From positions 42,830-106,829 of the forward strand of contig JABJGO010000088.1 of the NCBI GenBank assembly GCA_018662225.1: a stretch of DNA of 64,000 bases, read 5' to 3'. This document shows, in pieces, positions 35,829-60,612 of this stretch. The notes below the pieces were generated by a model. That model searched no databases, was not told where the DNA came from, and saw only the letters and a program-made list of their open reading frames with translations. Source of the DNA: Rhodospirillales bacterium (GTDB lineage: Bacteria; Pseudomonadota; Alphaproteobacteria; Rhodospirillales; Casp-alpha2). Every line of letters begins with the position of its first letter. The stretch's first letter is position 1. A program made the translations under genes and the position numbers.

Positions 35829-35883
35829 ATTAACTTGTACATGCTGCCAAATTTGCCCATTAGTCGGTCTAACCAGCCTTTCT

Positions 35884-35915
35884 GTAAACTTGAAAAAGGG
35901 TTGTTTTCGCGTAAC
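35884..35915 (+). promoter_or_regulatory. Copy 1 of the conserved 32-nt motif GTAAAC-N21-GTAAC
   Basis: GTAAACTTGAAAAAGGGTTGTTTTCGCGTAAC, located in the 127-bp divergent region between the FrhB-like/OFOR operon and cofE. Confidence 0.65.
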
Positions 35916-35955
35916 CTAATCTTCACGCCATAACTTACATGTGTGACTGGAACCT

Positions 35956-36726
35956 ATGACCACCGCTATCGAAGCTTTTGCTGTTCCCGGTATTCCCCTG
36001 CTGAAAGCGGGCGATGATCTGGCGGCTATTATCTATGAAAGCCTGAAGGCGGGCGATCGTTTGCTCGTGGACGGTGATATTGTCGTGATTGCCCAAAAGG
36101 CCGTTTCCAAGGTCGAGGGGCGTACGGTTGATCTCGGGACCATCACGCCGTCTGCCAGGGCTGAGGAAGTGGCCGCGAAATGTGAAAAAGATCCCCGCGA
36201 AGTGGAGGTCATACTGTCTGAATCCACACAAATCTTGCGGACCGGCGAAAATCTACTGATCGTCGAGCACCGTAACGGCGCAATCCTTGCCAATGCCGGG
36301 GTGGACCGCTCCAATGTTTCTTCTGATTCCGGTCAGGAGAACGTGTTGCTGTTGCCCGTGGATGCCGATGCCAGCGCCCGCGCATTATGCAAGCAATTCC
36401 GAGAGATCAGCGGTAAAGATGTGGCCGTGATTATCAATGACAGCCTGGGTCGACCGTGGCGGCTGGGCACAACGGGTGTGGCAATCGGCGTTGCGGGTAT
36501 GCCTGCTCTCGTCGATTTGCGCGGTGACACAGACCTGTTCGGGCGGGAACTGAAAGTCAGTGTCCAGGCCATTGCTGATGAACTTGCCGCAACCGGAGGC
36601 CTGCTTCAGGGGCAGGGTGCCGAGGGTCAGCCGGTTGCCGTCATACGCGGCGACTTTGGCTGGGATGAGGACGAAAGTCCGGCCACGGCCTTGATCAGAC
36701 CAGAAGACATGGACCTGTTTCGATGA
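35956..36726 (+). CDS. cofE: Coenzyme F420-0:L-glutamate ligase (stand-alone CofE type, no nitroreductase domain)
   Basis: 256 aa with CofE-like blocks (GDIVVIAQKAVSKVEGR; NAGVDRSN). It overlaps cofD by 4 nt. Confidence 0.85.
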   Translation: MTTAIEAFAVPGIPLLKAGDDLAAIIYESLKAGDRLLVDGDIVVIAQKAVSKVEGRTVDLGTITPSARAEEVAAKCEKDPREVEVILSESTQILRTGENLLIVEHRNGAILANAGVDRSNVSSDSGQENVLLLPVDADASARALCKQFREISGKDVAVIINDSLGRPWRLGTTGVAIGVAGMPALVDLRGDTDLFGRELKVSVQAIADELAATGGLLQGQGAEGQPVAVIRGDFGWDEDESPATALIRPEDMDLFR

Positions 36727-37667
36727 CGATATCTGTTGTTGCCCTATCTGGTGGTGTAGGCGGGGCCAAGCTGGCTTCGGGCCTGTCGCGTGTTGTGGCA
36801 CCGGGAAATTTGCTGGTTGCAGCAAATACCGGCGATGACTTTACTCATATGGGGTTGCACATTTCACCGGATATCGATTCCATCTTCTATGCGGTGACTG
36901 ATTTGAACAACACCGAGACCGGTTGGGGACGTGTGGGTGAAACCTGGAATTTTATGGCCGCTCTGAAGGAATTTGGCGGTGAGGACTGGTTCAATCTTGG
37001 TGACAGTGATCTGGCCATGCATGTACTGCGCAGCCACTGGCTGCGCCAGGGGAAATCATTAAGTGAGGTTACTGACCGTTTCTGTCAGGCAATGAAGGTC
37101 TCATTCAAACTGGCGCCCATGAGTGATGACCCGGTTGCGACGATGATCGAGTCGGATCGTGGCACCTTACCCATGCAGGATTATTTCGTGCGCGAACACT
37201 GTGAACCTGTTGCGAAGGCCTTTTCTTATGAAGGAGCTACCGAAGCGCGCGCCAATCCTGAACTGATGCAGGCCCTCAAAGACGGTTCTCTGCAAGCCAT
37301 CATCATCTGCCCCTCCAATCCATACCTGAGCATTGATCCCATTTTCAGCTTATCAGAAATCAGGGATCAACTCAGAGCCGCAAACGTGCCCGTTATCGCT
37401 GTTTCCCCCATAGTCGGTGGTGCAGCCCTCAAAGGACCGCTTGGCAAGATCATGGCTGAGTTGAAAATCGAGCCAAGTTCTCTCTCCATCGCTAAACACT
37501 ATGGTGATCTGATTGATGCGTTGGTGATTGATGAAAGCGATGCCCATGAGTGTGAAAGCATCGAAGCACTCGGCATCCGCGCCCATACCGCACCGACCAT
37601 TATGAAGACCGTGGACGATCAAAAGGTGCTGGCGAAGAAGGTGCTGGAACTCGTTGGCGTTGAATAA
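36723..37667 (+). CDS. cofD: 2-phospho-L-lactate (or analogue) transferase, CofD/FbiA
   Basis: N-terminal ALSGGVGGAKLASGL and overall CofD layout. Length is 314 aa. Confidence 0.85.
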   Translation: MTISVVALSGGVGGAKLASGLSRVVAPGNLLVAANTGDDFTHMGLHISPDIDSIFYAVTDLNNTETGWGRVGETWNFMAALKEFGGEDWFNLGDSDLAMHVLRSHWLRQGKSLSEVTDRFCQAMKVSFKLAPMSDDPVATMIESDRGTLPMQDYFVREHCEPVAKAFSYEGATEARANPELMQALKDGSLQAIIICPSNPYLSIDPIFSLSEIRDQLRAANVPVIAVSPIVGGAALKGPLGKIMAELKIEPSSLSIAKHYGDLIDALVIDESDAHECESIEALGIRAHTAPTIMKTVDDQKVLAKKVLELVGVE

Positions 37668-37670
37668 GGT

Positions 37671-38462
37671 TTAGTCACGTTGCCAACTGGGTTTGCTGCG
37701 GTCGAAGAAACAGGCCAGGCCTTCTTCGGTCTCGGATTCTTCCCAGCGGTCGGCCAGTCGTTCGGCTGATGCGCTCTGGTAGTTGTGACCCGGATTTCGG
37801 GCCAGTTCGATCATCCACGCTTTGGTATTGGTAACCGCGCCCGGTGCGCATTCTAAGAACAGATTGATCTGTTTATCCGTGGCTTCGTCCAGTTCACTGG
37901 CCGGAACGGCTTTGCTGACCAGACCAAGGCCCTGTGCCTCGTGTCCGTCAAAGGAGCTGGCATTGAGCGCGACCTGACGCACAGCCCGCTCTCCCATGCG
38001 GGCCGCGATAAACGGGCCAATAGTAGCGGGGATCAGGCCCAGCTTGGTCTCGGTCAGGGCAAAGCGGGCATCTTGCACAGCAATCACGATGTCGCAAACT
38101 GCCATTATACCGATGCCGCCGCCGTAGGCCTGCCCATTAACCCGCGCAATTACCGGTTTCGTCAGTTCGTCCAGTTCCTTGAGCATCGTCGCCAGTTCGG
38201 TTGCCTGGGCAATACGCCCGGCCCGATCGCTTTCAACCTGCTCCTTCATCCAGCCCAAATCGCCACCGGCGCAAAAGCTCTTGCCTTCACCGCTCAACAC
38301 CACGACGCGGACTTTATCATCACCATCAATTTGCATTAGGGCGGCGCGCAAATCGGCAATCATCTGGGCATTCAGGCTGTTATGTTTATCCGGACGATTG
38401 AGCGTCAGACGGGCCACACCACGTCCATCAACGTCCAGCCGGATAGTTTCAAACGCACTCAT
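37671..38462 (-). CDS. Enoyl-CoA hydratase/isomerase family protein (methylglutaconyl-CoA hydratase-like)
   Basis: Crotonase fold (FCAGGDL; GQAYGGG). Start set at MSAFETIRL (38462). The longer ORF-track version would overlap the upstream lyase gene by 148 nt. Confidence 0.8.
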   Translation of the reverse strand: MSAFETIRLDVDGRGVARLTLNRPDKHNSLNAQMIADLRAALMQIDGDDKVRVVVLSGEGKSFCAGGDLGWMKEQVESDRAGRIAQATELATMLKELDELTKPVIARVNGQAYGGGIGIMAVCDIVIAVQDARFALTETKLGLIPATIGPFIAARMGERAVRQVALNASSFDGHEAQGLGLVSKAVPASELDEATDKQINLFLECAPGAVTNTKAWMIELARNPGHNYQSASAERLADRWEESETEEGLACFFDRSKPSWQRD

Positions 38463-38467
38463 GACGA

Positions 38468-39328
38468 TTACCCTTCCTGCTTTATGGCCATGACGAGGTG
38501 TTCGGCTTCGGCGAGTTTCAAGGTGTCCACGCCCGTATCGAACCCAAGTTCCGCCAATCTTTGTGCCACAGCGCGTGTATCCACATTGCCTTTGGCACCA
38601 TGCGCGTAAGGACAACCACCGAGGCCACCGACCGCTGTATCGAAAGTGCGCAAATCAAAACGCAGGCTTTCCTCGATATTCCCAAGGGCATTATCGCCTG
38701 TGTCATGGAAATGCCCGGCGAGTTTATCTGGTGGCACGACGCTGACGACGGCTTCCAGCATGGCCGCAACCGTCTCCGGGTTGCCCGAACCGATGGTATC
38801 ACCGAGGGATATCTCATAGCAGCCCATATTGAGCAGGCTCTCGGCCACGCGGGCGACCTGTGATGGTGCGACCGGTCCATCGTAAGGACACGCCACCACA
38901 CAGGACACATAGCCACGAACCGGAATACCATCTTTATTGGCCGCCGCCATCACGGGTTCAAACCGTTCCAAGCTTTCGGCAATGGAGCAATTGATGTTTT
39001 TCTGGCTAAAACCTTCCGAGGCGGCAGCGAACACAGCCACTTCGTCGGCGTCGGCCTTATGGGCACGCTCATAACCCTTCAGGTTTGGCGTCAAAGCCGC
39101 ATAGCGGATACCGGGTTTGCGATTGATCCCGGCCAACACTTCGGCCGCATCGGCAAGTTGTGGTACCCACTTGGGAGAGACAAAGGCTGTCGCTTCAATG
39201 CGCGTGAGGCCGCATTGGGAAAGCAGATTAATCAACGCCACCTTCCGATCTGTGGCGATCTTGGCTGACTGGTTTTGTAAACCGTCGCGAGGACCAACTT
39301 CAAACAGGCAAATGGAGTCAGAGGCCAT
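38468..39328 (-). CDS. Hydroxymethylglutaryl-CoA lyase (HMGL-like family)
   Basis: EVGPRDGLQN N-terminus and HFHDTGDNALGN metal-site region. Length is 286 aa. Confidence 0.85.
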   Translation of the reverse strand: MASDSICLFEVGPRDGLQNQSAKIATDRKVALINLLSQCGLTRIEATAFVSPKWVPQLADAAEVLAGINRKPGIRYAALTPNLKGYERAHKADADEVAVFAAASEGFSQKNINCSIAESLERFEPVMAAANKDGIPVRGYVSCVVACPYDGPVAPSQVARVAESLLNMGCYEISLGDTIGSGNPETVAAMLEAVVSVVPPDKLAGHFHDTGDNALGNIEESLRFDLRTFDTAVGGLGGCPYAHGAKGNVDTRAVAQRLAELGFDTGVDTLKLAEAEHLVMAIKQEG

Positions 39329-39346
39329 GGTCTGAGAATTCCCGGT

Positions 39347-41734
39347 TTACGCAGACTTGGTGTAAATGAGCGGATTGTTGATGATGGGGCTCAATGGTGC
39401 CGCATTAAATGAGGTTTCCCGAATGGTTTTCGGCACAGGTTGGTAAAGCGTTGTTCGTTGCTCAGGGGTTCGGTCCATCCCCGCAATCAACGCTTCCATG
39501 TCTTCTGGTGGCATTTCCTGGCCGTGAGAACTTCCGGCTGCACGACTGATACTCTCGTTCATTAAAGTGCCACCCAGATCATTGCACCCGGCTTTGAGGG
39601 CTGCAATTGCTCCTTCCGGGCCCATTTTGGTCCACGACGTTTGAATATTGGTAATATGTGGGTGCAGGACCAATCGGGCCACCGCATGCATTAATACCGC
39701 TTCGCGGAATGTGGGGCCTCGGCGGACAGCGCTTTTCAAGAAGAATGGTGCCTCCATATGGACAAACGGCAGCGGAACGAACTCCGAAATACCACCCGTG
39801 GTTTTCTGAATATCGCGCAGTAATAATAAGTGTCTGGCCCAGTGAACAGGGCGTTCGATATGGCCAAACATGATGGTCGATGTGGTTCCGATCCCCGCTT
39901 CATGAGCGGCCATAATTACCTCGCCCCATTGGGCTGTATTGATCTTATCTTTGCAGAGCACATCGCGAATTTCATCATCAAGAATTTCCGCCGCCGTCCC
40001 GGGCAGCGATCCCAGGCCCGCCTCACGCAGCATGACCAGATAATCAGCGAGACTCATGGCCAGTGTCTCAGCCCCGTGCCACACCTCCAGCGGCGAAAAG
40101 GCATGCATATGAATGTCAGGAAAGGCATTCTTCACCGAGCGGCAGATATCAACGTAGGTCTCACCCGTGTAGGAAGGATGAATACCACCCTGCATACAGA
40201 CTTCCGTTGCGCCCCGCGTCTGGGCCTCGTTCACCCGGCGAAGAATCTCGTCCATGGTCAGATCATAGGGTGCCCCGCGCAGGGCTTCGGCTTTCTTGCC
40301 CTTGGAAAAGGCGCAGAACCCACATTTGAAATAACACACGTTGGTATAGTTGATGTTGCGGTTGACCACATAGGTCACCGTATCGCCATTGACCTCGCGG
40401 CGCAGGCTGTCAGCGGCATCACAGACTGTTGTGAAATCTTCGCCCCGTGCCGAAAATAATGTCTCGACTTCACCCTGTTTCAGGTCGTGCCCGTCTGCCG
40501 CCTTCGACAGCAGGCGGGCCAATCCGACGCTGACGTGAGGCGCGGTTGCACGGCTCCGAATTTCAGGTGGTGGAGTTTTGCATCCGGTCATCCAGCCATC
40601 ACCACGGGCGAACCCATGCGAGTCAATGTTTTCAAATACGGCTGAGCGTAGCTTGGGTTCAATCCATGCCTCGTTATTGAAAATGTATGCCGGGTAAACC
40701 GCCAGACGTTCCAACAGGGTTTTACCAGTCTTGGCTGTTTCCACTGCCAGTGCATCGATTTCGGGCCACGGTGCTTCCGGGTTAACGAAGTCCGGCGTTA
40801 CCGGCGAGATGCCACCCCAATCATTGATACCAGCACCAATCATCGCTTGCCCCAGACCGGGGCTAAGGTTTGGCGGTGCCTGAATGCTCATATCCGGGCC
40901 AAATATGTGGCGTGCTGTGGCGATGGCCCACAACAGGTATTTTGTATCTGGCTCCGGCGAAGCAGACATTTTCGTGCCAGATTTGGCACGGAAATTCTGC
41001 ACAATAATTTCCTGAATATGGCCGTAGCGATCGTGCAGGTCTCGCAACGCAATCAGAGACTGGATACATTCTTCGCGGGTTTCGCCGATCCCGATCAGAA
41101 TGCCTGATGTCATGGGTACACAAAGTTCACCCGCAAGGCGCAAGGTTTCGAGCCTCAGCGACGGAACCTTGTCCGGTGATCCGTAGTGGGGCCCACCCTT
41201 TTCACACAACCGCTCAGACGTGCTTTCCAGCATCAGCCCCATGGAAACAGAAACGCCTTTGAGCATCCGTATTTCATGGGCGTTCATCAAGCCGGGATTG
41301 ATGTGTGGCAGCAATCCGGTTTCCTTGAAAACGAGGTCGGCCATGGCGGCCACGTATTCCAGCGTGGACTCAAATCCCATCTGCTGCAATTCTTCCCGGG
41401 CCAGCCGGAACCGTAATTCCGGTTTGTCGCCCAGGGTAAACAGCGCTTCCTTGCATCCGGTGGCTTGGCCCTGTCCGGCGATCGCCAGCACCTCGTCAGC
41501 GCTCATATAGACGCGTTGCCCGGCCTTCGGTGGTTGGGTAAATGTGCAGTAATGACAAACGTTGCGGCATAACTGGGTAAGGGGGATAAAAACTTTCCGT
41601 GAATACGTTACGACGTTGCCGTGCCCCTGATCACGCAATCGGGCCGCCGTTCTCATCAGATCGTTCAGATCGGATGAAACCAGCGCGTCCAGTTCTGGCG
41701 TTACAGACCCGGCATAGGGGCGGATAACATTCAT
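39347..41734 (-). CDS. fbiC: FO synthase, fused CofG/CofH (FbiC), two radical-SAM domains
   Basis: 795 aa with two CxxxCxxC motifs (CRNVCHYCTF; CYFKCGFCAF). Confidence 0.9.
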   Translation of the reverse strand: MNVIRPYAGSVTPELDALVSSDLNDLMRTAARLRDQGHGNVVTYSRKVFIPLTQLCRNVCHYCTFTQPPKAGQRVYMSADEVLAIAGQGQATGCKEALFTLGDKPELRFRLAREELQQMGFESTLEYVAAMADLVFKETGLLPHINPGLMNAHEIRMLKGVSVSMGLMLESTSERLCEKGGPHYGSPDKVPSLRLETLRLAGELCVPMTSGILIGIGETREECIQSLIALRDLHDRYGHIQEIIVQNFRAKSGTKMSASPEPDTKYLLWAIATARHIFGPDMSIQAPPNLSPGLGQAMIGAGINDWGGISPVTPDFVNPEAPWPEIDALAVETAKTGKTLLERLAVYPAYIFNNEAWIEPKLRSAVFENIDSHGFARGDGWMTGCKTPPPEIRSRATAPHVSVGLARLLSKAADGHDLKQGEVETLFSARGEDFTTVCDAADSLRREVNGDTVTYVVNRNINYTNVCYFKCGFCAFSKGKKAEALRGAPYDLTMDEILRRVNEAQTRGATEVCMQGGIHPSYTGETYVDICRSVKNAFPDIHMHAFSPLEVWHGAETLAMSLADYLVMLREAGLGSLPGTAAEILDDEIRDVLCKDKINTAQWGEVIMAAHEAGIGTTSTIMFGHIERPVHWARHLLLLRDIQKTTGGISEFVPLPFVHMEAPFFLKSAVRRGPTFREAVLMHAVARLVLHPHITNIQTSWTKMGPEGAIAALKAGCNDLGGTLMNESISRAAGSSHGQEMPPEDMEALIAGMDRTPEQRTTLYQPVPKTIRETSFNAAPLSPIINNPLIYTKSA

Positions 41735-42438
41735 CCTGACCTCAGTTCACTCATATGAGCATATTCATCAAACCGCTCGAGAACACCGATGTTTGCCAGA
41801 TATCGCGCCGTGCGCGTGTCAGAATTCCACTCCATAAATGCGGGCAGGTCATCTGGTGTATCAAGATCAAGCGCCAATCCCAAAGAAGGAACCACCGTTG
41901 GCGCCAGGCCCATGTGAATCGCCGCACTCTTGTGCGCTGAAAAGCTGTTCTCGCCAAATTGGGGGGTGATCACATCCGCTGGTGTGCACAACAGGGCATT
42001 GGTCCCGCCGCCATCCCATGCCGGAATCACTGTTACAGCCGGGGCGGCGCCATGATTGAAGATAATTCGATCGATTTCTTCCGCACAAACCAGTGGTACG
42101 TCGCCCGGAATGCTGATCATACCCGCGCAACCCCGGGCATCAAGATATCGCCCGGCTGTGGCCACGGCCTCACACAAACCGCAGCTTGTTGTCTCGCTCA
42201 GCACTTCCGCGTCAAATGTCTTCGCCAACTCCATGGCATCACGCTCACAGGTAACGACCAGCGTGCCGGCAATATTTGAAGCCTTCGACAAAGCGTCAAG
42301 CACATCACCGAGCATGGCATACGATAATTGCTGGCGTTCACGGGTATTCAACACGGGAGACAGGCGCTGCTTTGCCAGATCAAATCGTTTGACCGGAACA
42401 ACGGCCCAAATACCAAATAGGGGTTCGTTTTGGTTCAT
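41731..42438 (-). CDS. cofC: CofC/FbiD-type guanylyltransferase for F420 side-chain activation
   Basis: VVPVKRFDLAKQRL N-terminus, GGTNAL, DLDTPDDL. It overlaps fbiC by 4 nt. Confidence 0.8.
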   Translation of the reverse strand: MNQNEPLFGIWAVVPVKRFDLAKQRLSPVLNTRERQQLSYAMLGDVLDALSKASNIAGTLVVTCERDAMELAKTFDAEVLSETTSCGLCEAVATAGRYLDARGCAGMISIPGDVPLVCAEEIDRIIFNHGAAPAVTVIPAWDGGGTNALLCTPADVITPQFGENSFSAHKSAAIHMGLAPTVVPSLGLALDLDTPDDLPAFMEWNSDTRTARYLANIGVLERFDEYAHMSELRSG

Positions 42439-42445
42439 GATCGAC

Positions 42446-43201
42446 CTACCTCACCACCCGTGCCCGGGCTTTGGCAACGGCTTCCTGACGTTCCGGTGAA
42501 GACAGTAATTTTTTGCGCTCATTTTCCCAAAATTCAGGATCATAGCTGTCGCTGTCCATGGCGTTCAAAAGCCGCTTGGTTGCGTCCACCGCGCCTCGAA
42601 CATTGTCGCCAGCCCATTTGGCAATTGCCAGCGCGGCCTCAAGGCAGCTATCACTTTTGACAACGGATGAGACAATACCGGCATCAAGTGCCGCATCAGC
42701 ATCATACCGTTCGCCCAGGACCAGCAAGCTCATAATCGCATCGCGGCCCAACAATTTGCGCAAGCGTATCACTGATTTGGGACTGTACAGTAATCCTAGG
42801 CGCGTGGCGGGGACCTGAAATATGGCGTTCGACGCCGCAATCCGTACATCGCAGGTAACGGCTACGTCGAATGCGCCACCCATGCAGGGGCCATCAATGG
42901 CGGCGATGACCGGAACTGGGGCCTCGCGAATGGCTGTGGTAACAGCCTCAATAGCATCATCAACGGCCAGGTCCTCAATGGTGCCGTTTAACTCCGTCAA
43001 ATCACCGCCGGCGCTGAAGCATCCACCCGACCCGTGCAGGATGACTGCGCTTGTGTCATCTCTGACTTCACTGGTCAGGGCTTGATGGAGTTCACCGAGC
43101 AGAGCCCTTGACAACGCATTCTTGCGCTCGGGCCTGTTCAGGGTCAGGACAAGTGTGCCATCTTGATGATTAACGTTGATCAGTTCATTCATGCAAGACA
43201 C
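42446..43201 (-). CDS. Enoyl-CoA hydratase/isomerase family protein
   Basis: Crotonase signatures (FSAGGDL; DGPCMGGAF). Length is 251 aa. Confidence 0.8.
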   Translation of the reverse strand: MSCMNELINVNHQDGTLVLTLNRPERKNALSRALLGELHQALTSEVRDDTSAVILHGSGGCFSAGGDLTELNGTIEDLAVDDAIEAVTTAIREAPVPVIAAIDGPCMGGAFDVAVTCDVRIAASNAIFQVPATRLGLLYSPKSVIRLRKLLGRDAIMSLLVLGERYDADAALDAGIVSSVVKSDSCLEAALAIAKWAGDNVRGAVDATKRLLNAMDSDSYDPEFWENERKKLLSSPERQEAVAKARARVVR

Positions 43202-46813: not shown

Positions 46814-46857
46814 CGTTTCGTTAATGTCGTGTCAGTTAATGCAGATGGCCTCAAATC

Positions 46858-46889
46858 GTAAACTTGAAAAAGGGTTCGCATTACGTAAC
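46858..46889 (+). promoter_or_regulatory. Copy 2 of the conserved 32-nt motif GTAAAC-N21-GTAAC
   Basis: GTAAACTTGAAAAAGGGTTCGCATTACGTAAC. It ends 9 nt before the LysR ATG (46899), in the region divergent from the Mo-hydroxylase/cofC/fbiC operon. Confidence 0.65.
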
Positions 46890-46898
46890 AATATTTTC

Positions 46899-47804: not shown

Positions 47805-47834
47805 AACGCCCCGGCGATCTTACATGAAGAAAAC

Positions 47835-47866
47835 GTTACGTTAGCCCAATCCTTTTTCAAGTTTAC
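47835..47866 (-). promoter_or_regulatory. Copy 3 (inverted orientation) of the conserved 32-nt motif
   Basis: The reverse complement reads GTAAACTTGAAAAAGGATTGGGCTAACGTAAC. It lies between the LysR stop and the LLM operon. Confidence 0.65.
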
Positions 47867-47960
47867 GCTCAATTCAATCCTGCCTATTCCTCCAAAAGAT
47901 AAATTTCGGGGTGCAAATCCACTTTGTTTGCCCCACAGACCATTTGAGGAGGATACCAAC

Positions 47961-48962: not shown

Positions 48963-48968
48963 GAGAAC

Positions 48969-49748
48969 ATGATGAGTAGCGACAAAACCATTGTCCTGAT
49001 TCATGGACTGTCCGAAGAACGCAGCGCCTGGAAACGGCAGATTGCGTTCCTTAGCGATCACATGAACGTGGTCGCCTATGATGTGCGGGGGTTCGGTTCC
49101 AGCCCGGTTGGGGCCGGTAACGGTACCGTGCATCAGATGGCCGACGATCTGGCCCAGATTGTCAGCGCCCAAGATGGCAGCAATGGGGGGACAGGGTCGG
49201 TTTATCTGTGTGGTTTTTCCATGGGTGGCGTCATTTCCCAGCGCTTTGCGCTGGATTTTCCTGATCTGTGCAGCGGGCTAATTCTTATCGCCAGTTCCTG
49301 TGTGGTTGGGCACCCGGGTGCTGAGTTCTTCACCCAACGCTTGAGTGACGTAGAGGCTGGTGGCCTGGATACACTGAATGCCACCAATACCAGTGACGCC
49401 CGGGGCTGTTTTGCGCCTGATAAGGAAAGCAACGAACCACTGATCGCTGAGTACCAGAAACTGCGGACTGAAGCCGTGCGTGATGTTAATGGTTATCTGA
49501 ATGCCGGGCGTGCCATGCTGCGGCTTAATACCGAGCCGATGATCCAGGACCTGGGTGCGATTCAACACCCCACACTGGTCATTGCCGGCGAGCTTGATCC
49601 CTTTTGCCCGCCAAGAGCATCGGAAATGATTACGGATGGTATCCCCAGTGCAGAAATGTGCGTGATCCCCGCTGTGGGGCATTGCCTGCATTGGGAAGAG
49701 CCGGACGTCACCAATAATCTGATCAAGGAATTTGTCGACACACATTAG
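48969..49748 (+). CDS. Alpha/beta hydrolase
   Basis: Nucleophile elbow GFSMGG and a C-terminal His (VGHCLHWE). Confidence 0.8.
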   Translation: MMSSDKTIVLIHGLSEERSAWKRQIAFLSDHMNVVAYDVRGFGSSPVGAGNGTVHQMADDLAQIVSAQDGSNGGTGSVYLCGFSMGGVISQRFALDFPDLCSGLILIASSCVVGHPGAEFFTQRLSDVEAGGLDTLNATNTSDARGCFAPDKESNEPLIAEYQKLRTEAVRDVNGYLNAGRAMLRLNTEPMIQDLGAIQHPTLVIAGELDPFCPPRASEMITDGIPSAEMCVIPAVGHCLHWEEPDVTNNLIKEFVDTH

Positions 49749-49765
49749 GTGAGGCTGGAACGATC

Positions 49766-50554
49766 ATGAGCGATGAAGAAAAAACAGAAGAAGGCCCTCC
49801 CCTGATTTGGGAAAAGCGCGGCCACGTTGCGATTCTGACCCTGAACAGGCCCAAGGCCATGAATTCATGGGATCCGGAAATGATGGACGAACATCGCCGG
49901 TTGCTAACTGAATTTGAAGATGATGATGACTTGCGGGTTCTGATCTACACGGGTGAAGGCCGAGCGTTTTCCACCGGCATCAATATTCGCAAAGCACCTG
50001 ACTATCTGTATCTTAACCCTAAAGAACGCACCACCAAATGGATCACCCCGAATTCCATCAAGCTGAGCAAGCCAACCATCGCAGCCATTAACGGCTTTGC
50101 CATTGGCGGCGGTCTGGAACTGGCTCTCGGGTGTGACATGCGGATCATGGCCGAAAGCGCCAAGGTGGGTCTGTCAGAAGTCAAACTCGGCGCACTGCCG
50201 GGCGGTGGCGGAACCCAGTGGTTGCCACGCCTCATCGGACTTGGCGATGCCTTGATGATGATGCTAACGGGTGAGCCCATTGATGCGGCAGAAGCATTCC
50301 GTTTGCGTCTGGTGCAGAAAGTTGTTCCCGATGACCAACTTTTGGACGAGGCCATGAAAATTGCCGAAGCCATCGCGGCCAATGGCAAAACCGCTGTGCG
50401 CCTGACCAAGGAAGTTGCCTTGCTGGGCCTCAATGCTTCGCTGGCCGACGCATTGTGGCTCGAAGAAATTTACTTTGCTCGCAACCGTGTTGATGCCGCT
50501 GATGAAATCAAGGAGCGTCTGGACGCTTTCCAGAACGCGGCAAAGAAAAAATAG
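49766..50554 (+). CDS. Enoyl-CoA hydratase/isomerase family protein
   Basis: Crotonase fold with NGFAIGGGLELALGCD. Confidence 0.85.
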   Translation: MSDEEKTEEGPPLIWEKRGHVAILTLNRPKAMNSWDPEMMDEHRRLLTEFEDDDDLRVLIYTGEGRAFSTGINIRKAPDYLYLNPKERTTKWITPNSIKLSKPTIAAINGFAIGGGLELALGCDMRIMAESAKVGLSEVKLGALPGGGGTQWLPRLIGLGDALMMMLTGEPIDAAEAFRLRLVQKVVPDDQLLDEAMKIAEAIAANGKTAVRLTKEVALLGLNASLADALWLEEIYFARNRVDAADEIKERLDAFQNAAKKK

Positions 50555-50565
50555 GAACACCGATT

Positions 50566-51372
50566 ATGGATTTAGGATTAAAGGGTAAGACTGCCATTGT
50601 AACCGGCGCCGCTTCCAACATTGGCAAGGCCATTGCTGTCGGTTTGTTCGGTGAAGGGGCCAATGTTGTCATCATTGATCTTGATGTGGCGCAGGCCGAA
50701 AAAGTTGTCGCCGACCTCAATGGCAATTCAGACGGCAATGAAGCCATGTTTGTAAAGGCCGATGTGGGCAACCGTGAAGAAGTTGGCGCTATGGCCGAAG
50801 CTGTCATGACCAAGTTCGGCTCCGTTGAAATTCTGGTCAATAATGCAGGCTGGACAGCCAACAACCTGTTTCTGAACAAGCCATACTCTGACTTTGAAAA
50901 AGAAGTCTCCATTAACCTGTGGGGTCCCATCAACTGCATTCATGCCATCGCGCCATCCATGATCGAAAGCAAATACGGCAAGATCGTCAATATTGGATCG
51001 GATGCCGGGCGGGTGGGTGAATATAACGAGGCTGTTTATGGCGCTTGCAAGGCTGGCCTGATTTCATTGACCAAGACTTTGGCTATCGAGTTTGGCAAGC
51101 ATGGCCTCAATTTGAATTGTGTTTGTCCTGGCTTGACCCTGCCCGACAATCCCGCAGCCGATGCTGGTATCGATAGCCTGTGGCATCCGGACAGCCCGCA
51201 AAGCAAGATTTTCCGTGATGAGGAAACCATGAAGAAGGTGGTGAAGCACTATCCCCTTCGTCGCCATGGCGTGCCGGAAGATCTGGTTCCCATGGTGATG
51301 ATGATGGCTTCGGATAAGACGTCCTATGTCACCGGCCAAACCATAAGCGTCAGCGGCGGTTACGCCATGTAA
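50566..51372 (+). CDS. SDR-family oxidoreductase
   Basis: TGAASNIGKA cofactor motif, NNAG, YGACK catalytic motif. Confidence 0.85.
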   Translation: MDLGLKGKTAIVTGAASNIGKAIAVGLFGEGANVVIIDLDVAQAEKVVADLNGNSDGNEAMFVKADVGNREEVGAMAEAVMTKFGSVEILVNNAGWTANNLFLNKPYSDFEKEVSINLWGPINCIHAIAPSMIESKYGKIVNIGSDAGRVGEYNEAVYGACKAGLISLTKTLAIEFGKHGLNLNCVCPGLTLPDNPAADAGIDSLWHPDSPQSKIFRDEETMKKVVKHYPLRRHGVPEDLVPMVMMMASDKTSYVTGQTISVSGGYAM

Positions 51373-51397
51373 GGCGAGAGACTGGAAGGGAGACAAC

Positions 51398-53044
51398 GTG
51401 AGCGATCTGGCGGAAACATACCGCGCCGAGGGTTACTGGACGGACAAGCTTCTGACGGATTTTTTTGAAGCTGCCGTGAAAGCGACTCCTGACAAGGTCT
51501 TTGTGAAAGATGATCGTCACGGTGCCTTTAGCTATGCGGACACGTCGCCAATCGTGCTAAAACTGGCGGCGGCCTTGCAGGAAAAAGGTATCGGACGGGA
51601 TGACAAATTCGTTGTAGCCCTGCCAAACTGGTATCACGTGCCGGTATTTGCTTTGGCTCTTAACTATCTGGGTGCGGTCTGCGTTCACATGCCGGCGACT
51701 GGCGGTGCGCATGAGTTCTCCGGTGTCTTATCCGTTTCCGAAGCCAAAGGCATTGTTGTACCGCGCTCCTTTGGCAGCAGCGATCATGTGCAGATGATCA
51801 ATAGCATTGCCAGTGATCTGGAAAATCTGGAGCTGTGCATTGCCGTTGATGGTGATCCTGAGGATTCTAAATGGTTGGGTTTTGATGAGCTGATGGCGGG
51901 TGCCCAGGAAAGCGGTCCGGACCACAGCCACAGACCGGACGCATCGGACGTGACAGCCCTGATCTTCACGTCTGGATCATCGGGCGCGCCCAAAGGTGTG
52001 GTGCATAGTTCCAACTCCCTGACGGCATTGAATACAACCCTTTACCCAATCTTTGATTTTGGATCTGATGAAATCATTTTCATGGGTGCACCGCTGGGGT
52101 TTTCGGCGGGCCTCGCCCATGGTTTACGCCTAGCCGTGGTGCTTGGCTGCACGCTGATCCTGCAGGAAGTCTGGAATTCAGAGCGGGCGCTTGAAACCAT
52201 GGCCCGGGAGAAGGCTACGTTCACCCTGACCACGCCCACACTGTTACATGATATTTTCCGCAGCCCGGCGTTCGATGAGTTCAGTGAGCAGATTTGCCTG
52301 AAACTCATGCTGTGCGGTGGTATGTATGTTCCCACACCCTTGCTGCGGGAAGCCAGGGAGCGTTGGCCCAATACACTCACATCTGTGATCTGGGGCATGA
52401 CCGAAGGGATTGGTACGTGCAGCCGTTATGACACGCCCGTGGACAAGCTCGTGGAAACCGACGGTCGACCGTTTCTTGGTACGGAACTGAAAATCGTCCG
52501 CCAGAACGATGAAGCCGCGGCACCGGGCGAAATTGGAGATCTGGTCATGCGTGGGCCACAGCTATTCCTGGGTTACTACAAGCGACCCGAGTTGGATGCA
52601 GACGTCTTCCTTGCGGGCGATCCAACCGGTCGCTGGTTCCGGACAGGCGATGTCGCCTCCATTGATGAAGATGGTTATCTGAAACTGCGTGGTCGCAAGA
52701 AGGAGTTGATCATTCGCGGTGGGGCCAACCTGTCTCCATCCGAAATTGAGGAACAACTGGCCAGTGATGCGCGAATTCACGCTGTGCTGGTGGTTGGTAT
52801 CCCGGACGAACGATTGGGCGAAAAAGTCTGCGCATGCATCATCCCGACCCCGGGTTGTGAAAATTTCTGTCTGGATGACCTCATCGAAATCGCAGGTCTA
52901 TCGGGGCTTTCCAAGGCCAAGTGGCCGGAACGATTGGAAATAGTCGAAGCATTTCCTACGACATCAGCAGGCAAGATCCAGCGCCACGTGTTACAAGAAC
53001 AAGTGTGCAAGAAAATTGAAGCTGAACAAGCGGGAGAGGCATAG
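51398..53044 (+). CDS. AMP-binding acyl-CoA synthetase/ligase
   Basis: FTSGSSGAPKG, WGMTEG, FRTGD and a C-terminal GKIQR. GTG start. Confidence 0.85.
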   Translation: MSDLAETYRAEGYWTDKLLTDFFEAAVKATPDKVFVKDDRHGAFSYADTSPIVLKLAAALQEKGIGRDDKFVVALPNWYHVPVFALALNYLGAVCVHMPATGGAHEFSGVLSVSEAKGIVVPRSFGSSDHVQMINSIASDLENLELCIAVDGDPEDSKWLGFDELMAGAQESGPDHSHRPDASDVTALIFTSGSSGAPKGVVHSSNSLTALNTTLYPIFDFGSDEIIFMGAPLGFSAGLAHGLRLAVVLGCTLILQEVWNSERALETMAREKATFTLTTPTLLHDIFRSPAFDEFSEQICLKLMLCGGMYVPTPLLREARERWPNTLTSVIWGMTEGIGTCSRYDTPVDKLVETDGRPFLGTELKIVRQNDEAAAPGEIGDLVMRGPQLFLGYYKRPELDADVFLAGDPTGRWFRTGDVASIDEDGYLKLRGRKKELIIRGGANLSPSEIEEQLASDARIHAVLVVGIPDERLGEKVCACIIPTPGCENFCLDDLIEIAGLSGLSKAKWPERLEIVEAFPTTSAGKIQRHVLQEQVCKKIEAEQAGEA

Positions 53045-54210
53045 TGGATTTTTCCCTCACATCTGATCAGCAGGCGATTTGTGAAACGGTCCAGAAAATC
53101 TGTGACGATTTCGACGATGATTACTGGCTGGAACACGATAAATCCGGCGAATTTCCCGACGACTTCCATATGGCCATGGCAAATGGCGGCTGGCTTGGCA
53201 TTGCCATGCCTGAAGAATTCGGTGGTGCTGGACTGGGTGTTACCGAGGCGGCCCTGATGATGCATAAAGTCGCAAGTTCATCCGGGGCCATGGCGGCTGC
53301 ATCGGCTATCCACATCAACGTGTTCGGCCCACACGCCATTGTGGTTTTTGGTAGCGAAGAACAAAAAAAGAAATGGTTGCCTGATCTGATCGAAGGGCGT
53401 GTGAAGACCTGTTTCGGGATCACCGAGCCCGACGCTGGACTTAACACCACATCCATCAAGACGCGCGCTGAGCGTGACGGCGACAGCTACAAGGTTTTCG
53501 GCAAGAAGGTGTGGACGTCAACGGGTCTGCAGGCCGACAAGATTATGCTGCTGACCCGCACCACACCCAAGGAAGAGTGCGAACGCCCCACCGATGGCAT
53601 GACGCTGTTTTACACGGATCTGGACCGTAAATACTGTGACGTGCGGGCAATCCCCAAGATGGGTCGCGCGGCGGTACCCTCATGTGAAACCTTTATTGAC
53701 GGCTTGCCCGTGCCGGCTGAGGACCGCATCGGTGAGGAAGGCAAGGGGTTCAAGTATATCCTGCACAGTCTTAATCCAGAACGGGTGCTGGTTGCCATGG
53801 AAGGCATTGGCATTGGACAGAATGCGTTGGCGCGGGCCGCCCAGTACGCCAAAGACCGCGTTGTGTTCGACCGCCCTATTGGCATGAACCAATCCATTCA
53901 GCACCCGCTGGCTGAGAACTGGATTGAGTTGGAGGCCGCTTTCCTCATGGCCATGAAAGCGGCATATCTCTATGACACGGACCAGCCGTGTGGCCTCGAA
54001 GCCAATGCGGCCAAGTATCTTGGCGGCGAGGCTGGCTTCAAGGCCTGTACACAAGCCATTATGACCCACGGCGGCATGGGTTACGCCAAGGAATTTCATG
54101 TGGAGCGACTGTTGCGCGAAGTCTTGATTACCCGCCTGGCCCCCATTAGCCCGCAACTAATTCTATGCAACATCGCCGAAAAGGCGCTGGGGTTACCCAA
54201 GTCATACTGA
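53044..54210 (+). CDS. Acyl-CoA dehydrogenase
   Basis: 388 aa ACAD fold (GITEPDAGLN; C-terminal catalytic region). GTG start overlaps the upstream stop (TAGTG). Confidence 0.85.
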   Translation: MDFSLTSDQQAICETVQKICDDFDDDYWLEHDKSGEFPDDFHMAMANGGWLGIAMPEEFGGAGLGVTEAALMMHKVASSSGAMAAASAIHINVFGPHAIVVFGSEEQKKKWLPDLIEGRVKTCFGITEPDAGLNTTSIKTRAERDGDSYKVFGKKVWTSTGLQADKIMLLTRTTPKEECERPTDGMTLFYTDLDRKYCDVRAIPKMGRAAVPSCETFIDGLPVPAEDRIGEEGKGFKYILHSLNPERVLVAMEGIGIGQNALARAAQYAKDRVVFDRPIGMNQSIQHPLAENWIELEAAFLMAMKAAYLYDTDQPCGLEANAAKYLGGEAGFKACTQAIMTHGGMGYAKEFHVERLLREVLITRLAPISPQLILCNIAEKALGLPKSY

Positions 54211-55449
54211 CGTCAGCGTTTTCCATTGTGTCCGTAACCCATGCCTGAATTCCGGGGCGGCCAACTCTATCAGTGCCTCGGCGCGGGCTTGTACAGGCAG
54301 ATGCTTGATGCGCTGCGCGCCGAACTCTGTCACCACATAATCTATGTCACTGCGGAGTGCCGTGGCTGGTGTGTTCGAAGTCAGTGCAGGCACAATGCGT
54401 GAAACTGTGCCACCGGAGGCTGTGGCGTTGAGCGCGATGATGGAGCGTCCACCATTCGAGAGTGCTGCACCGCGCATCATATCCACCGAGCCGCCGGTAC
54501 CACTGACTTGGCTTCCACCCAGCACGTCGGCGTTGATCTGTCCGAACAGATCGATCTCCAGAGCCGAGTTAATGGAAACGAAATTGTCAATCTGGCGCAA
54601 GGTACCCGGATCATGGGTATGGTTGACCGGGCGGAAGCTTAGCCGCTCGGATTTGCCAACCCAGTCAATTAACTTTTGTGAGCCCAATGTGGCACCGGTC
54701 GTCAGCGTGCCCTTGATGTTACCGGCATTGGCCAGTGCCATCACACCGTCGGTAATCATACCCGAATGAAACTTCAGATCGTTCTTGTCTGTGAGCGCGG
54801 CCAACGTGGCGTCTGGAATGGCCCCAATCCCGATCTGGAGACAGTCGCCATCGTTGATCAACTGAGCCACCGACGCGCCAATGGCACGCGTCGCATCACC
54901 CGCTTTCGCGACGGGAAACGTAAGGATCGCACGATCCGTTTTTACGGCATGGGTTAGTCGGTCCGCTGGCATTCGGAGACTGTCAACAGGTAATGGTTGT
55001 CGGGCATTTATCTCACCGATCACCAGCTTGGCCTTGCCCAGAACGGCGGGTAGAAAATCCGCACTGATACCGTGGCTGATCATGCCGTCCTCGTCTGCTG
55101 GTGGCAGTTGCACGATAACCGCATCGATATCCAGTTCGCATTCCAGATAGTCATAGATGGCACGATATTGCAGGGGCAGATAATCGACCCGACCCGCCGC
55201 CATGCTGTCGCGATTCTGCGGTGTTGCGAAAAAGGCGGTTGAACGCGCGTCAGGATGAAAGCTTGAAAAGTCCACGCCATTCATGCCAGGCACCGAAATC
55301 GAGATGAAATGAACCCCGGCACAGGCATCGCCTGAATTTCCCAAAGCATCGAGAATATCACTGGGTTCCGCCGTGGCGCCCGCTACAAAAACCGTCATGC
55401 CGGGTTTTAGCAGTTCAGCGACCTGATCGGCTTCAACCCAGTTGGTCAT
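54202..55449 (-). CDS. Acetyl-CoA hydrolase/transferase-family CoA-transferase
   Basis: 415 aa with family-typical GGSVDM and overall layout. Confidence 0.8.
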   Translation of the reverse strand: MTNWVEADQVAELLKPGMTVFVAGATAEPSDILDALGNSGDACAGVHFISISVPGMNGVDFSSFHPDARSTAFFATPQNRDSMAAGRVDYLPLQYRAIYDYLECELDIDAVIVQLPPADEDGMISHGISADFLPAVLGKAKLVIGEINARQPLPVDSLRMPADRLTHAVKTDRAILTFPVAKAGDATRAIGASVAQLINDGDCLQIGIGAIPDATLAALTDKNDLKFHSGMITDGVMALANAGNIKGTLTTGATLGSQKLIDWVGKSERLSFRPVNHTHDPGTLRQIDNFVSINSALEIDLFGQINADVLGGSQVSGTGGSVDMMRGAALSNGGRSIIALNATASGGTVSRIVPALTSNTPATALRSDIDYVVTEFGAQRIKHLPVQARAEALIELAAPEFRHGLRTQWKTLTSV

Positions 55450-55464
55450 ACAGAAACCATCCCT

Positions 55465-56898
55465 TTAAGCACTTACCGGTGGGCGACGATCCGCCCATGG
55501 TTTTGCCTGCTCAAGCTGGGCAGCCAATGACAGCAGCGTGGCCTCGTCCCCATAGCGCCCGGTAAAGTGTGTACCAATGGGCAGGTTGGCATCATTCCAG
55601 TGCAGCGGCAATGAAATACCCGGCTGTCCCGTGGCATTGGCGATCAGGGTGAAGCCGGTAAAATCGCCCAGTCGTTTAAAGTGCTCGTCCCGGGTTTCCG
55701 GTGTGTATTCGAAGTAGCCCAGCGGCACCGGTGGTTGGGCCAGAGTGGGCGTCAGCCACACGTCATAATCTTCGAAGAAAAGGCCGAAGTCGCGATTGAT
55801 TTTTTGCAACTGTTGCATCGCGAGCAGGTACTTGCCGCCGCTCATGCCAAGGCCGTGCTGGTACATTTTCCAGGTTACCGGCTCGAAGTGCTCTTCGGCT
55901 GGCTCGCGCCCGGTGATCTGCTGCCATCCCTGAATAGCCCAGACCAGATAGTTGGTGAATGCGATGCCAAAGGATTTCAGCATCGCCCGGCTGTCCACCT
56001 GGGGTGAGGCGATTTCCACATCGTGGCCCAGATCTTCACACAGTTTCGCGGTAGCGTGTGCTGCGGCAATACAATCGGCATGGGTTTCGGCACCGGTAAG
56101 AGGTTCCGTACCCAGAGCAATGCGCAGGCGCTTCGGGGTTTGTTTGATCTGTTCCAGATAGGGATACGCGGGTGGTGTAGGAGCATAAGGCTCACCCGGT
56201 ACAGAGCCGTTGGTGGCGTCGAGGATCGCCGCACTATCACGGACAGAGCGAGTTACCACGTGTTCGCAGATAATACCGCCCAGAATATCACCATAGTTTG
56301 GCGCCAGCGAGTTACGGCCACGCGTCGGTTTAAGACCCACCAGTCCACATGCCGAAGCGGGAATACGGATGGAGCCGCCGCCATCGTTGGCATGCGCCGC
56401 CGCCACCATGCCCGACGCCACGGCAGCGGATGAGCCGCCACTGGAGCCGCCGGTGCCCCGGCTTAAATCCCACGGGTTGCAGGTCGGGCCATAGTGGCCG
56501 GGCTCGGTGGTTGGTAGTAGTCCGTATTCTGAGGAATTGGTTTTGCCCATGATGATCAGGCCTGCCTGCTTGTAACGGCGGACAAGTTCGCAATCTTCTT
56601 TTGAGACGTATTGTCCGGCAAGATAGGCCGAGCCATCCGTGCGTGGCATGCCCTCACATTCTGACACCAGATCTTTTAACAAGAATGGAACACCGCAGAA
56701 GGGAGCATCTGAATGATCCAATGCCCTGGTCGCTGCATCGCGTGCCATATCGAAGAAAGGCATGATCACGGCGTTCAGGTCCGGATTTAATTTCTCAATG
56801 CGATCAATCGCAGCATTGACCATTTCAAGCGGTGTAACGTCCTTTGAACGGACCAGTTCCGCCTGCGCCGTAGCGTCTAAAAATGCAATATTTTCCAT
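55465..56898 (-). CDS. Amidase (amidase-signature family)
   Basis: [14 protein letters not shown] signature and a Ser-cisSer-Lys context. Confidence 0.85.
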
Positions 56899-56991
56899 AA
56901 CTTAAGTCGACTCCGGTATGTGTAGCCGTTTGTAAAACATTCGAAGCGTTCACACGCTGAGGCGTGTATCCAACATCGTGATACGCCTGTC

Positions 56992-57023
56992 GTAAACCTG
57001 AAAAAATCACCTTTCCGGGTAAC
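56992..57023 (+). promoter_or_regulatory. Copy 4 of the conserved 32-nt motif (more diverged spacer)
   Basis: GTAAACCTGAAAAAATCACCTTTCCGGGTAAC, between the divergent amidase and LLM genes. An extra GTAAC lies at 57076-57080. Confidence 0.55.
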
Positions 57024-57122
57024 ATATTCATCATGTTATTTTTTGTGTTGCGCCCGTCAAATTTCTGTATTTAACGTAACCTTGGGGCCTTGGACAATTT
57101 GCGAATATTGGGGATTGACCTA

Positions 57123-60584: not shown

Positions 60585-60612
60585 GAACATACAGATACAG
60601 GAGACTTCACTC

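Follow-up and report, generated by a model that had tools for sequence, protein, structure and literature searches.

The island and its four sites

The DNA described here is a 64,000-nt stretch from a Rhodospirillales bacterium (GenBank assembly GCA_018662225.1, contig JABJGO010000088.1, positions 42,830 to 106,829 of the forward strand), referred to below as the window. The feature under study is a 44-nt element that occurs four times in it, always in intergenic DNA adjoining gene 5' ends. The genes of the window were assigned to families by Pfam and NCBIfam profile searches, which confirmed the gene names given in an earlier note on this DNA. A minus-strand operon (30310-35828) encodes an FrhB-like/ferredoxin fusion, subunits of a 2-oxoacid:ferredoxin oxidoreductase (OFOR) and a pyridoxal phosphate (PLP) decarboxylase; its FrhB-like product does not reach the curated cutoffs for frhB. 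Next to it lie cofE and cofD (35956-37667) and a second minus-strand operon (37671-46798), which encodes three Mo-hydroxylase subunits, enoyl-CoA hydratases (ECH), CofC, a CofGH fusion (fbiC) and an HMG-CoA-lyase-like protein (HMGL). The CofGH fusion is a true one by NCBIfam (1126 bits, cutoff 1018). These genes are followed by lysR (46899-47804, +), which encodes a 301-aa protein of the GcvA subfamily, by an operon of LLM (LLM1), hydrolase, ECH, SDR, CoA-ligase and ACAD genes (47961-54210), by CoA-transferase and amidase genes (54202-56898, -) and by a second LLM gene (LLM2), the product of which passes the F420-dependent family TIGR03619 (175 against a cutoff of 166.9 bits).

Site 1 (35884-35927, +; GTAAACTTGAAAAAGGGTTGTTTTCGCGTAACCTAATCTTCACG) lies between the FrhB-like gene (ATG 35810, -) and cofE (ATG 35956). 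Site 2 (46858-46901, +) ends on the start codon of lysR, with the flavin adenine dinucleotide (FAD)-subunit gene of the Mo-hydroxylase (ATG 46798) on its other side. Site 3 (47823-47866, -) is an inverted copy directly after the lysR stop codon. Site 4 (56992-57035, +), the most diverged copy (CTGAAA for TTGAAA), is found between the amidase gene (ATG 56898, -) and LLM2 (ATG 57123). Seen from the element, the divergent, or leftward, side of the four copies faces the FrhB-OFOR-decarboxylase, Mo-hydroxylase-cofC-fbiC, LLM1-ACAD and amidase-CoA-transferase operons, respectively. The rightward side faces cofE-cofD, lysR, no gene at all (the antisense strand of lysR) and LLM2. Site 3 had been described as lying upstream of the LLM operon; the place is correct, but the element points away from that operon, into the 3' end of lysR, and could serve it only through its divergent side.

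Extent and conservation of the element

The earlier note had reported a 32-nt motif, GTAAAC-N21-GTAAC, at four places, and it was found at each of them (35884, +; 46858, +; 47835-47866, -; 56992, +). These four matches compare with 0.02 expected from dinucleotide-preserving shuffles of the window, none of the 100 shuffles reaching four. The motif is real, but its reported length was too short: an alignment of the four sites with their flanks gives a conserved unit of 44 nt, GTAAAC-yTGAAAAA-N13-GTAAC-N4-T-N2-TCAyG, which can also be written as GTAAAC-yTGAAAAA-N11-GC-GTAAC-N7-TCAyG. A 48-nt position weight matrix (PWM) built from the four sites scores them at 57-67 bits, and the next best position in the 64 kb at 6.5 bits. 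When a 44-nt PWM is derived from other genomes alone (60 copies), site 3 scores 61.2 bits, site 2 57.7, site 1 51.7 and site 4 32.0, and the next best position -12.0. The element family is therefore discrete, with exactly four members in the window, and neither PWM revealed weaker extra copies there, for example before the MttB-like or methyltransferase genes.

Among 35 unique full copies of the lysR type, from genomes that span 48-71% GC, mean pairwise identity is 0.78 within the element, 0.32 in the 44 nt upstream of it and 0.69-0.75 in the adjacent coding DNA for the helix-turn-helix. An information profile of 47 unique copies shows strong conservation of T18, T24, G26, C27 and G28 in the spacer, and also of A33-T37 and T39-G44. 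The five spacer bases are conserved though they are not read by RNA polymerase, which argues for a bound protein. A periodicity of about 10.7 bp in the conserved T's (7/8, 18/19, 29 and 39/40) was considered and rejected, as it is interrupted by T24. In copies away from lysR, no conserved peptide starts at the ATG of the element (M-stop, MQ-stop, MLF-stop and, at site 4, a 13-aa open reading frame (ORF)). TCATG is nevertheless kept in inverted copies without an ORF, and is thus constrained as DNA.

Occurrence in other genomes

A scan of 185,579 species-representative genomes with the query GTAAACNTGAAAAA-N13-GTAAC returned 61 matches in 60 loci. The TCAyG block, which was not part of the query, is present in 21 of the 61 matches, and one further match has the near-miss TCGTG. 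All 22 are from alphaproteobacterial metagenome-assembled genomes (MAGs) of the Rhodospirillales, Kiloniellales/Kiloniellaceae, Thalassospiraceae and Hyphomicrobiales, with a locus GC of 48-70%, and TCAyG occurs in none of the 39 remaining matches (Bacteroidota, Firmicutes, Vibrio and other groups). Orthology was established by tblastn of the window proteins against the loci, and in 17 genome loci the ATG of the element proved to be residue 1 of an orthologue of the window LysR (49-82% identity).

Because the loci of the genome scan had been selected by the motif itself, a second sample of 60 metagenome loci with upstream sequence was picked by LysR effector-domain peptide patterns and not by the motif. 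The full element is present in 27 of them, with variants that include TTGTAAAA, TTGCAAAA and GGAAC. Another 16, which form a sister clade (group B; LysR identity 47-54%), carry the element core without GTAAAC, keeping TTGAAAAA-N11-(C)GC-GTAAC-N7-TCATG in exact codon-1 register. Five loci have only GCGTAAC-N7-TCATG, and 12, including two non-orthologues of about 28% identity, have nothing. The main clade, with the GTAAAC-bearing element, is referred to as group A. The block common to all clades, and the last to be lost, is GCGTAAC-N7-TCATG. In more than 50 alphaproteobacterial loci (48-71% GC), the ATG at positions 42-44 of the element is codon 1 of an orthologous GcvA-subfamily LysR gene, and the ancestral and most conserved place of the element is the lysR promoter itself.

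In group B, (AT)GTGA stands in place of GTAAAC, which gives a clear palindrome, ATGTGA-N11-TCACAT, around the -35 (centre 12). At ten of these loci (L081, L083, L088, L090-L092, L094, L097, L098 and L105), positions 1-23 form a near-perfect palindrome centred on the -35 TTGAAA. Genes for an enoyl-CoA hydratase and a 3-hydroxyacyl-CoA dehydrogenase precede it co-directionally, and downstream come a convergent BCCT (betaine/carnitine/choline) transporter gene and Mo-hydroxylase genes. This may be the cleanest place to define the half-site of the regulator. A further side observation concerns locus L037, where, within 3051-3150, a perfect element has an ATG that opens a 17-codon ORF, MSNMFQRVHRGLELIPA and a stop, resembling a lysR remnant from which the helix-turn-helix has been deleted (MSN...LFxRxHRxLELTPA). 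An intact lysR orthologue (4030-4935) follows about 940 nt beyond it, and the remnant looks like a decayed regulator duplicate that retained its operator.

The earlier note had taken the motif for a specific cis-regulatory element and had named a generic dispersed repeat as the case that would overturn this. The copies speak for the former: there are four in 64 kb, all at 5' gene ends, copies occupy orthologous positions across genomes, and the complete 6.04-Mb Rhodospirillales chromosome that holds locus L005 has a single exact match, at its lysR, so the element is not a dispersed repeat. A mobile origin, with the element as the terminal inverted repeats of a lysR cassette or as a dispersed repeat of the REP/MITE (repetitive extragenic palindrome/miniature inverted-repeat transposable element) kind, could draw on the two inverted copies, about 1 kb from each other, that lie on either side of lysR. 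However, no transposase is present, and the inverted pair is confined to one conserved synteny. Site 3 is found in every locus with the gene order FAD-subunit (divergent)-lysR-LLM1 (window, L028, L043, L061, L063, L064/65 and L074) and, in a diverged form, in L056, L059 and L054; in L028, site 2 is conserved together with it. The variable spacer of site 3 (GGATTGGGCTA...) is conserved by position across genomes, which indicates that the copies are old and orthologous rather than recently transposed. A mobile element is therefore scarcely credible as an explanation.

The genes facing the element vary. Of 33 divergent neighbours, 19 encode LLM-class oxidoreductases, with best matches to F420-type families that are mostly below cutoff, and six encode Mo-hydroxylase FAD subunits. 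The divergent neighbour is a flavin reductase gene in L005 and L067, and the element faces an ABC-transporter operon in L038 and an AMP-ligase gene in L043. As the LLM-class neighbours are mostly below the F420 cutoffs and flavin reductases occur among the divergent genes, the regulator family is tied to LLM-type redox catabolism in general and is not F420-specific. The link to F420 biosynthesis is lineage-specific, being found only in this genome and in the L046/L059 relative. The connection of F420 synthesis genes with LLM/CoA-ester catabolism, from which a compact regulon had been proposed for the window, is thus seen in these two genomes but is not general in the regulator family.

The predicted rightward promoter and the lysR start codon

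The best-fitting promoter frame has a -35 TTGAAA at positions 7-12, a 17-nt spacer and a -10 AACAwT at positions 30-35, with A42, preceded by C41, seven bases further on. This agrees with the earlier suggestion of an embedded -35-like TTGAAA followed by a -10 that begins in GTAAC. A31 and T35 are nearly 100% conserved across 47 copies. At site 2, the predicted lysR promoter consists of TTGAAA (46864-46869), a 17-nt spacer and AACAAT (46887-46892), and it passes a generic sigma-70 scanner (46864-46892, 9/12) with +1 on the A of the lysR ATG at 46899. At site 1, the -35 TTGAAA is at 35890-35895, the -10 region at 35912-35918 and the predicted start at A 35925, which would leave a 31-nt leader before cofE. 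Since cofE has no other upstream intergenic DNA, this is its only visible promoter. At site 4, the predicted start is A 57033, with a 90-nt leader to LLM2 and a 13-codon ORF from the ATG of the element. At site 3, the predicted start at 47825 would direct antisense transcription into lysR; its ATG is followed at once by TAA, and there is no ORF.

Several observations suggest that lysR is translated from a leaderless mRNA. The predicted -10 stops 7 nt short of the A of the lysR ATG, and the 14 nt before that ATG are invariant, purine-poor and leave no room for a Shine-Dalgarno sequence; target genes in the same loci have GGAGG-type sites. A separate gene call for locus L124 (JABJCA010000092.1, GCA_018665645.1), which has an identical LysR, starts lysR at the same ATG. 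We infer a sigma-70-type promoter that starts transcription at the A of the ATG, and hence a leaderless lysR transcript. The simplest reason for the exact 21-nt spacer of the motif would then be that a promoter which must start on a start codon has a fixed -35/-10/+1 geometry.

It could be argued that a promoter is all there is to the element: a core promoter for the housekeeping or an alternative sigma factor, held constant by the need of a leaderless mRNA for an exact start, the other copies being duplicated strong promoters. The -35/-10/start geometry fits this explanation, the deepest-conserved part, GCGTAAC-N7-TCATG, is the -10/start block, and CTTGAAA resembles a -35 of the sigma-32 type. 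However, a promoter alone would leave unexplained the spacer bases T18, T24 and GCG 26-28, which sigma-70 does not read, and the TCATG kept without an ORF. The inverted site 3 after lysR would be a conserved promoter without a gene to express. Further, the element is confined to one LysR orthologue group and occurs once in a complete 6-Mb chromosome, unlike a general promoter class. Alternative sigma factors do not fit either. An extracytoplasmic function (ECF) sigma promoter (AAC/CGT) needs a gap of 16-17 nt and the gaps found are 20 nt (GTAAAC to CGTA) and 13 nt (TGAAAA to CGTA), and the sister clade lacks GTAAAC altogether; for a sigma-32 promoter, the -10 region does not match CCCCATnT. 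For these reasons a bound regulator is preferred, and a promoter acting by itself is regarded as improbable.

The predicted leftward promoter

On the opposite strand, positions 5 to -1 read TTTACG, position -1 being C in 87% of copies. An isolated A/T-rich hexamer follows 17-19 nt beyond TTTACG in nearly every copy, amid a background of 60% GC; position -22 is A/T in 94% of copies, and the A/T box spans -20 to -25. The hexamer is class-specific and at a fixed distance: TATTAC or TATTCC before LLM1 (eight loci), TTAACT before the FAD-subunit gene (window, L056, L059 and L061) and TCTAAT, TCTATT or TCTTAT before LLM2-like genes. In many copies, most clearly in the LLM1 and LLM2-like classes, a leader that contains a Shine-Dalgarno sequence comes next.

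The presence of GTAAAC goes with gene orientation. In 41 of the 46 copies that bear GTAAAC, the upstream ORF is divergent. Among the five exceptions, L056 and L061 are divergent by tblastn, L054 is confounded by a run of N, and L067 and L070 depend on short 87-aa ORFs. In group B, which lacks GTAAAC, the upstream gene is co-directional in 11 of 13 cases and ends 4-45 nt before the element. GTAAAC is thus present with a divergent gene and mostly absent without one, and we read it as the -35 of a predicted divergent promoter, so that GTAAAC and TTGAAA form a back-to-back pair of predicted -35 boxes.

By this contrast in orientation (41 of 46 against 2 of 13), GTAAAC and GTAAC, which the earlier note had called half-sites, are not duplicates of a single half-site; GTAAC belongs to the -10/start block common to all variants. 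As direct repeats they would also be 26-27 bp apart from centre to centre and hence on opposite faces of the helix, and GTAAAC is dispensable in a sister clade that keeps the rest. The inverted pairing GTAAC-N7-GTTTAC reported at 46792-46809 is at chance level, since at least one such pair occurs in 51% of shuffles with free spacing. The orthologous loci L056 and L059 do not have this pairing, and its GTAAC is formed by codons 1-3 (M-L-P) of the FAD-subunit gene on the opposite strand.

In the window, the predicted divergent promoter of site 1 (35859-35888, -; consensus-based) has a -35 TTTACA at 35883-35888, an 18-nt spacer and a -10-like ACTAAT at 35859-35864, and would serve the FrhB-like/OFOR/PLP-decarboxylase operon. 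Site 1 is conserved between cofE and the FrhB-like gene in the Rhodospirillales MAG locus L046, which is on the same contig as the lysR site L059, with an equivalent GATTAAT box. At site 2 (46833-46862, -), a -35 TTTACG at 46857-46862, a 17-nt spacer and a -10-like TTAACT at 46834-46839 would drive the Mo-hydroxylase/ECH/cofC/fbiC/HMGL/ECH operon; the ATTAACTG box before the FAD-subunit gene is found at an equal distance in L056, L059 and L061. At site 3 (47862-47890, +), the predicted promoter of the LLM1/hydrolase/ECH/SDR/CoA-ligase/ACAD operon has a -35 TTTACG at 47862-47867, a 17-nt spacer and a -10 TATTCC at 47885-47890, with a start predicted at about 47897, a Shine-Dalgarno sequence GAGGAGG and a GTG at 47961. 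A yTATTACC box occurs at the identical distance before LLM1 in L056, L059, L061, L063, L064, L074 and L028. Counted from this predicted LLM1 start, GTAAC..TCATG occupies -58 to -74, and GTAAAC/TTGAAA occupies -31 to -44.

The LysR protein as candidate binder

The window LysR has the Pfam domains HTH_1 and LysR_substrate and scores 271 bits against the GcvA subfamily of NCBIfam (cutoff 288). The earlier note had named its gene as the obvious candidate for the regulator, and it is by far the best one, as the element adjoins codon 1 of its orthologues in 17 genome loci and in about 43 of the 60 protein-selected metagenome loci. Between 30 and 59 kb of the window it is the sole regulator gene.

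Among element-bearing orthologues the recognition helix SREAVSRQIRxLE hardly varies, and it is identical in groups A and B, the proteins of which differ only in the N-terminal arm (R5G and N12K) and the wing (residues 57, 63 and 64). Four loci that have lost the TTGAAAAA block and kept GCGTAAC-N7-TCATG (L079, L102, L106 and L111) all carry R45H (SREAVSRQIH), which makes R45 a candidate specificity-determining contact, confounded by shared ancestry. Most paralogues without the element have other changes in the recognition helix.

The element might instead be the operator of another transcription factor encoded elsewhere, the adjacent lysR being its target and not the gene of its binder. LysR sites typically show dyad symmetry, which in group A is weak, and the ATGTGA-N11-TCACAT of the sister clade could belong to another protein family. 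Against this, the element and the LysR orthologue group go together in all genomes found, which represent at least four groups (Rhodospirillales, Kiloniellales, Thalassospiraceae and Hyphomicrobiales), and the element overlaps the predicted promoter of the regulator itself, as in classical LysR autoregulation. Moreover, the helix is invariant where the element is invariant and altered in most lineages of loss, and the window has no second regulator gene within 30-59 kb. Another factor is rated as unlikely, slightly more so than the promoter by itself, and this LysR is taken as the probable binding protein.

Proposed mechanism and regulon

It appears reasonably probable, on the sequence comparisons given above, that the 44-nt unit is a bidirectional promoter/operator module controlled by the GcvA-subfamily LysR encoded next to it. 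Rightward, a sigma-70-type promoter would have its -10 AACAwT within GTAAC-Aw-T and its start at the A of TCATG. Leftward, the 5' GTAAAC with the preceding C would supply TTTACG, the divergent -35, with an A/T-rich -10 17-19 nt further on. LysR, probably as a tetramer, would occupy the whole element, with the GC-GTAAC-N7-TCATG block at about -58 to -74 of the divergent promoter in the position of a recognition site and the GTAAAC/TTGAAAAA/GGnTT block at about -31 to -50 in that of an activation site. Since the recognition block covers the -10 and start of the rightward promoter, autorepression would be expected. Copies of the module would put four operon pairs under LysR: FrhB-OFOR-decarboxylase with cofE-cofD, Mo-hydroxylase-cofC-fbiC-HMGL with lysR, LLM1-to-ACAD with an antisense-lysR start, and amidase-CoA-transferase with LLM2.

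A number of points weigh against this interpretation. The rightward promoters of sites 1, 3 and 4 are below the threshold of the generic sigma-70 scanner, and at site 4 the divergent -35 TTTACG (56991-56996) is present with a poor -10 candidate (TTGGAT/TGGATA). Dyad symmetry is modest: the best centre in group A is 10.5-11, with 54% complementary pairs, and the best centres over both groups are 10.5-12. Centre 35.5 gives only a weak AAC-N5-GTT in a subset of copies, and there is no clean T-N11-A box. The motif-selected part of the collection inflates the pooled conservation at positions 1-14 and 28-32, although it is still seen there in the protein-selected subset. The covariation of helix and element is confounded by phylogeny, and the orthologues of L071 and L073 have an unchanged helix and yet no element. 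Finally, classical autorepression would repress cofE-cofD while activating fbiC-cofC, which is not obviously sensible.

Site 3 retains all the promoter-like features, pointing into lysR, in at least eight loci, and this could be taken as a sign of action at the RNA level, either by an element in a 5' leader or by RNA antisense to lysR. However, a rightward transcript would not include most of the 44 nt, which precede the predicted start, and lysR is predicted to have no leader at all. The primary sequence is conserved in both orientations with no compensatory pattern, and a search of 35000-58000 on both strands gave no Rfam match at the gathering score. Action at the RNA level is therefore held to be very unlikely.

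An extension of the LysR-controlled module to physiology is put forward only tentatively, and we consider it rather doubtful as a whole. According to it, one substrate-responsive LysR would run a 'cofactor on demand' regulon in marine Rhodospirillales. F420 synthesis (fbiC and cofC in the activated operon, cofE-cofD from the promoter of the module) would be controlled together with a putative F420-reducing 2-oxoacid oxidoreductase-FrhB module, F420-dependent LLM enzymes and CoA-ester catabolism. With an antisense transcript across lysR from the inverted copy, the regulator would set both its own sense and its own antisense transcription.

Neighbouring features

The operon at 30310-35828 (-) encodes an FrhB-like F420-binding subunit that forms a fusion with a 2x[4Fe-4S] ferredoxin domain, OFOR alpha/gamma and beta subunits and a PLP-dependent decarboxylase. 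It is a possible 2-oxoacid-driven F420-reducing module, which would be an unusual route of F420 reduction for a proteobacterium. Beside the island, at 59127-63990 (+), are genes for an MttB-superfamily methyltransferase, a corrinoid protein, a pterin-binding methyltransferase and a RACo-type reductive activator. They make up a complete corrinoid-dependent demethylation system, the substrate of which is probably a quaternary amine, and the element is absent from it. At site 4, the scanner also reports a sigma-70-like TTGACG-16-TAACAT (57033-57060, -), the -10 of which overlaps the ATG of the element; it would read through the element to the amidase gene, and about 0.6 such hits are expected there by chance. 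The longest ORFs of an enoyl-CoA hydratase (37671-38615) and the HMG-CoA-lyase-like protein (38468-39328), both on the minus strand, overlap by 148 nt; a public gene call starts the enoyl-CoA hydratase later (263 aa), which leaves no overlap with the HMG-CoA-lyase-like gene.

Comparison with known systems

Literature searches found neither the motif string nor a LysR/F420 regulon in Alphaproteobacteria, and no regulation of F420 supply outside archaea and actinobacteria was found in the searchable literature. The element gives a precise candidate operator/promoter sequence for uncharacterized, widespread GcvA-like regulators of marine Alphaproteobacteria, and because the PWM separates sites from background by more than 40 bits, their regulons can be predicted directly from metagenomes. 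In the present lineage, it suggests that F420 synthesis and reduction may be switched on together with F420-using enzymes. If 'cofactor on demand' is true, F420 biosynthesis would here have its first dedicated transcriptional control to be described for Proteobacteria.

In the classical divergent architecture of LysR systems, such as BenM/CatM, CbnR, IlvY and OxyR, a recognition site (RBS) lies at about -65 and an activation site (ABS) at about -35. The module resembles these in that the regulator gene and its predicted target diverge, the predicted promoter of the regulator is overlapped by the site, the size is that of a tetramer footprint and the positions match the predicted start. It differs in having no clear T-N11-A dyad in the main clade, in that binding is here a prediction, and in the inverted site 3 downstream, by which lysR is bracketed by two putative operators.

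The closest relative is the GcvA operator of E. coli. GcvA gives a 48-bp DNase footprint in the divergent gcvA-gcvB region, which contains two inverted repeats (Wilson et al. 1995, as summarized in PMC5002191). The repeat with its centre at -65 of gcvB covers the gcvA promoter; it is the most conserved one and serves autorepression. The repeat with its centre at -43 lies next to the target -35 and serves activation (PMC5002191). The window LysR belongs to the same subfamily (271 bits), and the module is likewise one long region in divergent intergenic DNA (44 or more nt here, 48 bp there). By predicted starts, it too has sub-sites near -65, over the promoter and start of the regulator gene and most conserved, and near -43. 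Unlike the GcvA operator, it has no ATTAG-n5-CTAAT, its blocks being GCGTAAC-N7-TCATG and GTAAAC/TTGAAAAA. The window lysR mRNA is predicted to be leaderless, the targets are LLM, Mo-hydroxylase and F420 operons and not gcvB or gcvTHP, and the whole module is reused at other operons, vestigial start codon included. An assignment to GcvA proper was rejected, as 271 bits is below the cutoff of 288, CTAAT-type inverted repeats are lacking and the neighbouring genes have no relation to gcv.

A leaderless transcript in a LysR system has been mapped by RNA-seq for the lysE P2 promoter of the M. tuberculosis lysG-lysE pair (PMC5648196). That system shares with the module a -10 about 7 nt before the ATG, the lack of a Shine-Dalgarno sequence and a LysR divergent pair. 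There the target gene is leaderless, whereas here it is the regulator gene, by prediction, and the arrangement is conserved across alphaproteobacterial orders.

In mechanism, the module as proposed is a divergent promoter/operator of the classical LysR type, with GcvA as the nearest paradigm. Its less usual traits are a start codon that lies within the operator and is kept across orders, which makes lysR an example of a regulator gene, predicted to be leaderless, with a start codon that is part of its own operator; the reuse of the whole promoter-operator cassette with its vestigial ATG, a natural example of regulon growth by copying; and the wiring of cofactor-biosynthesis genes into a catabolic regulon.

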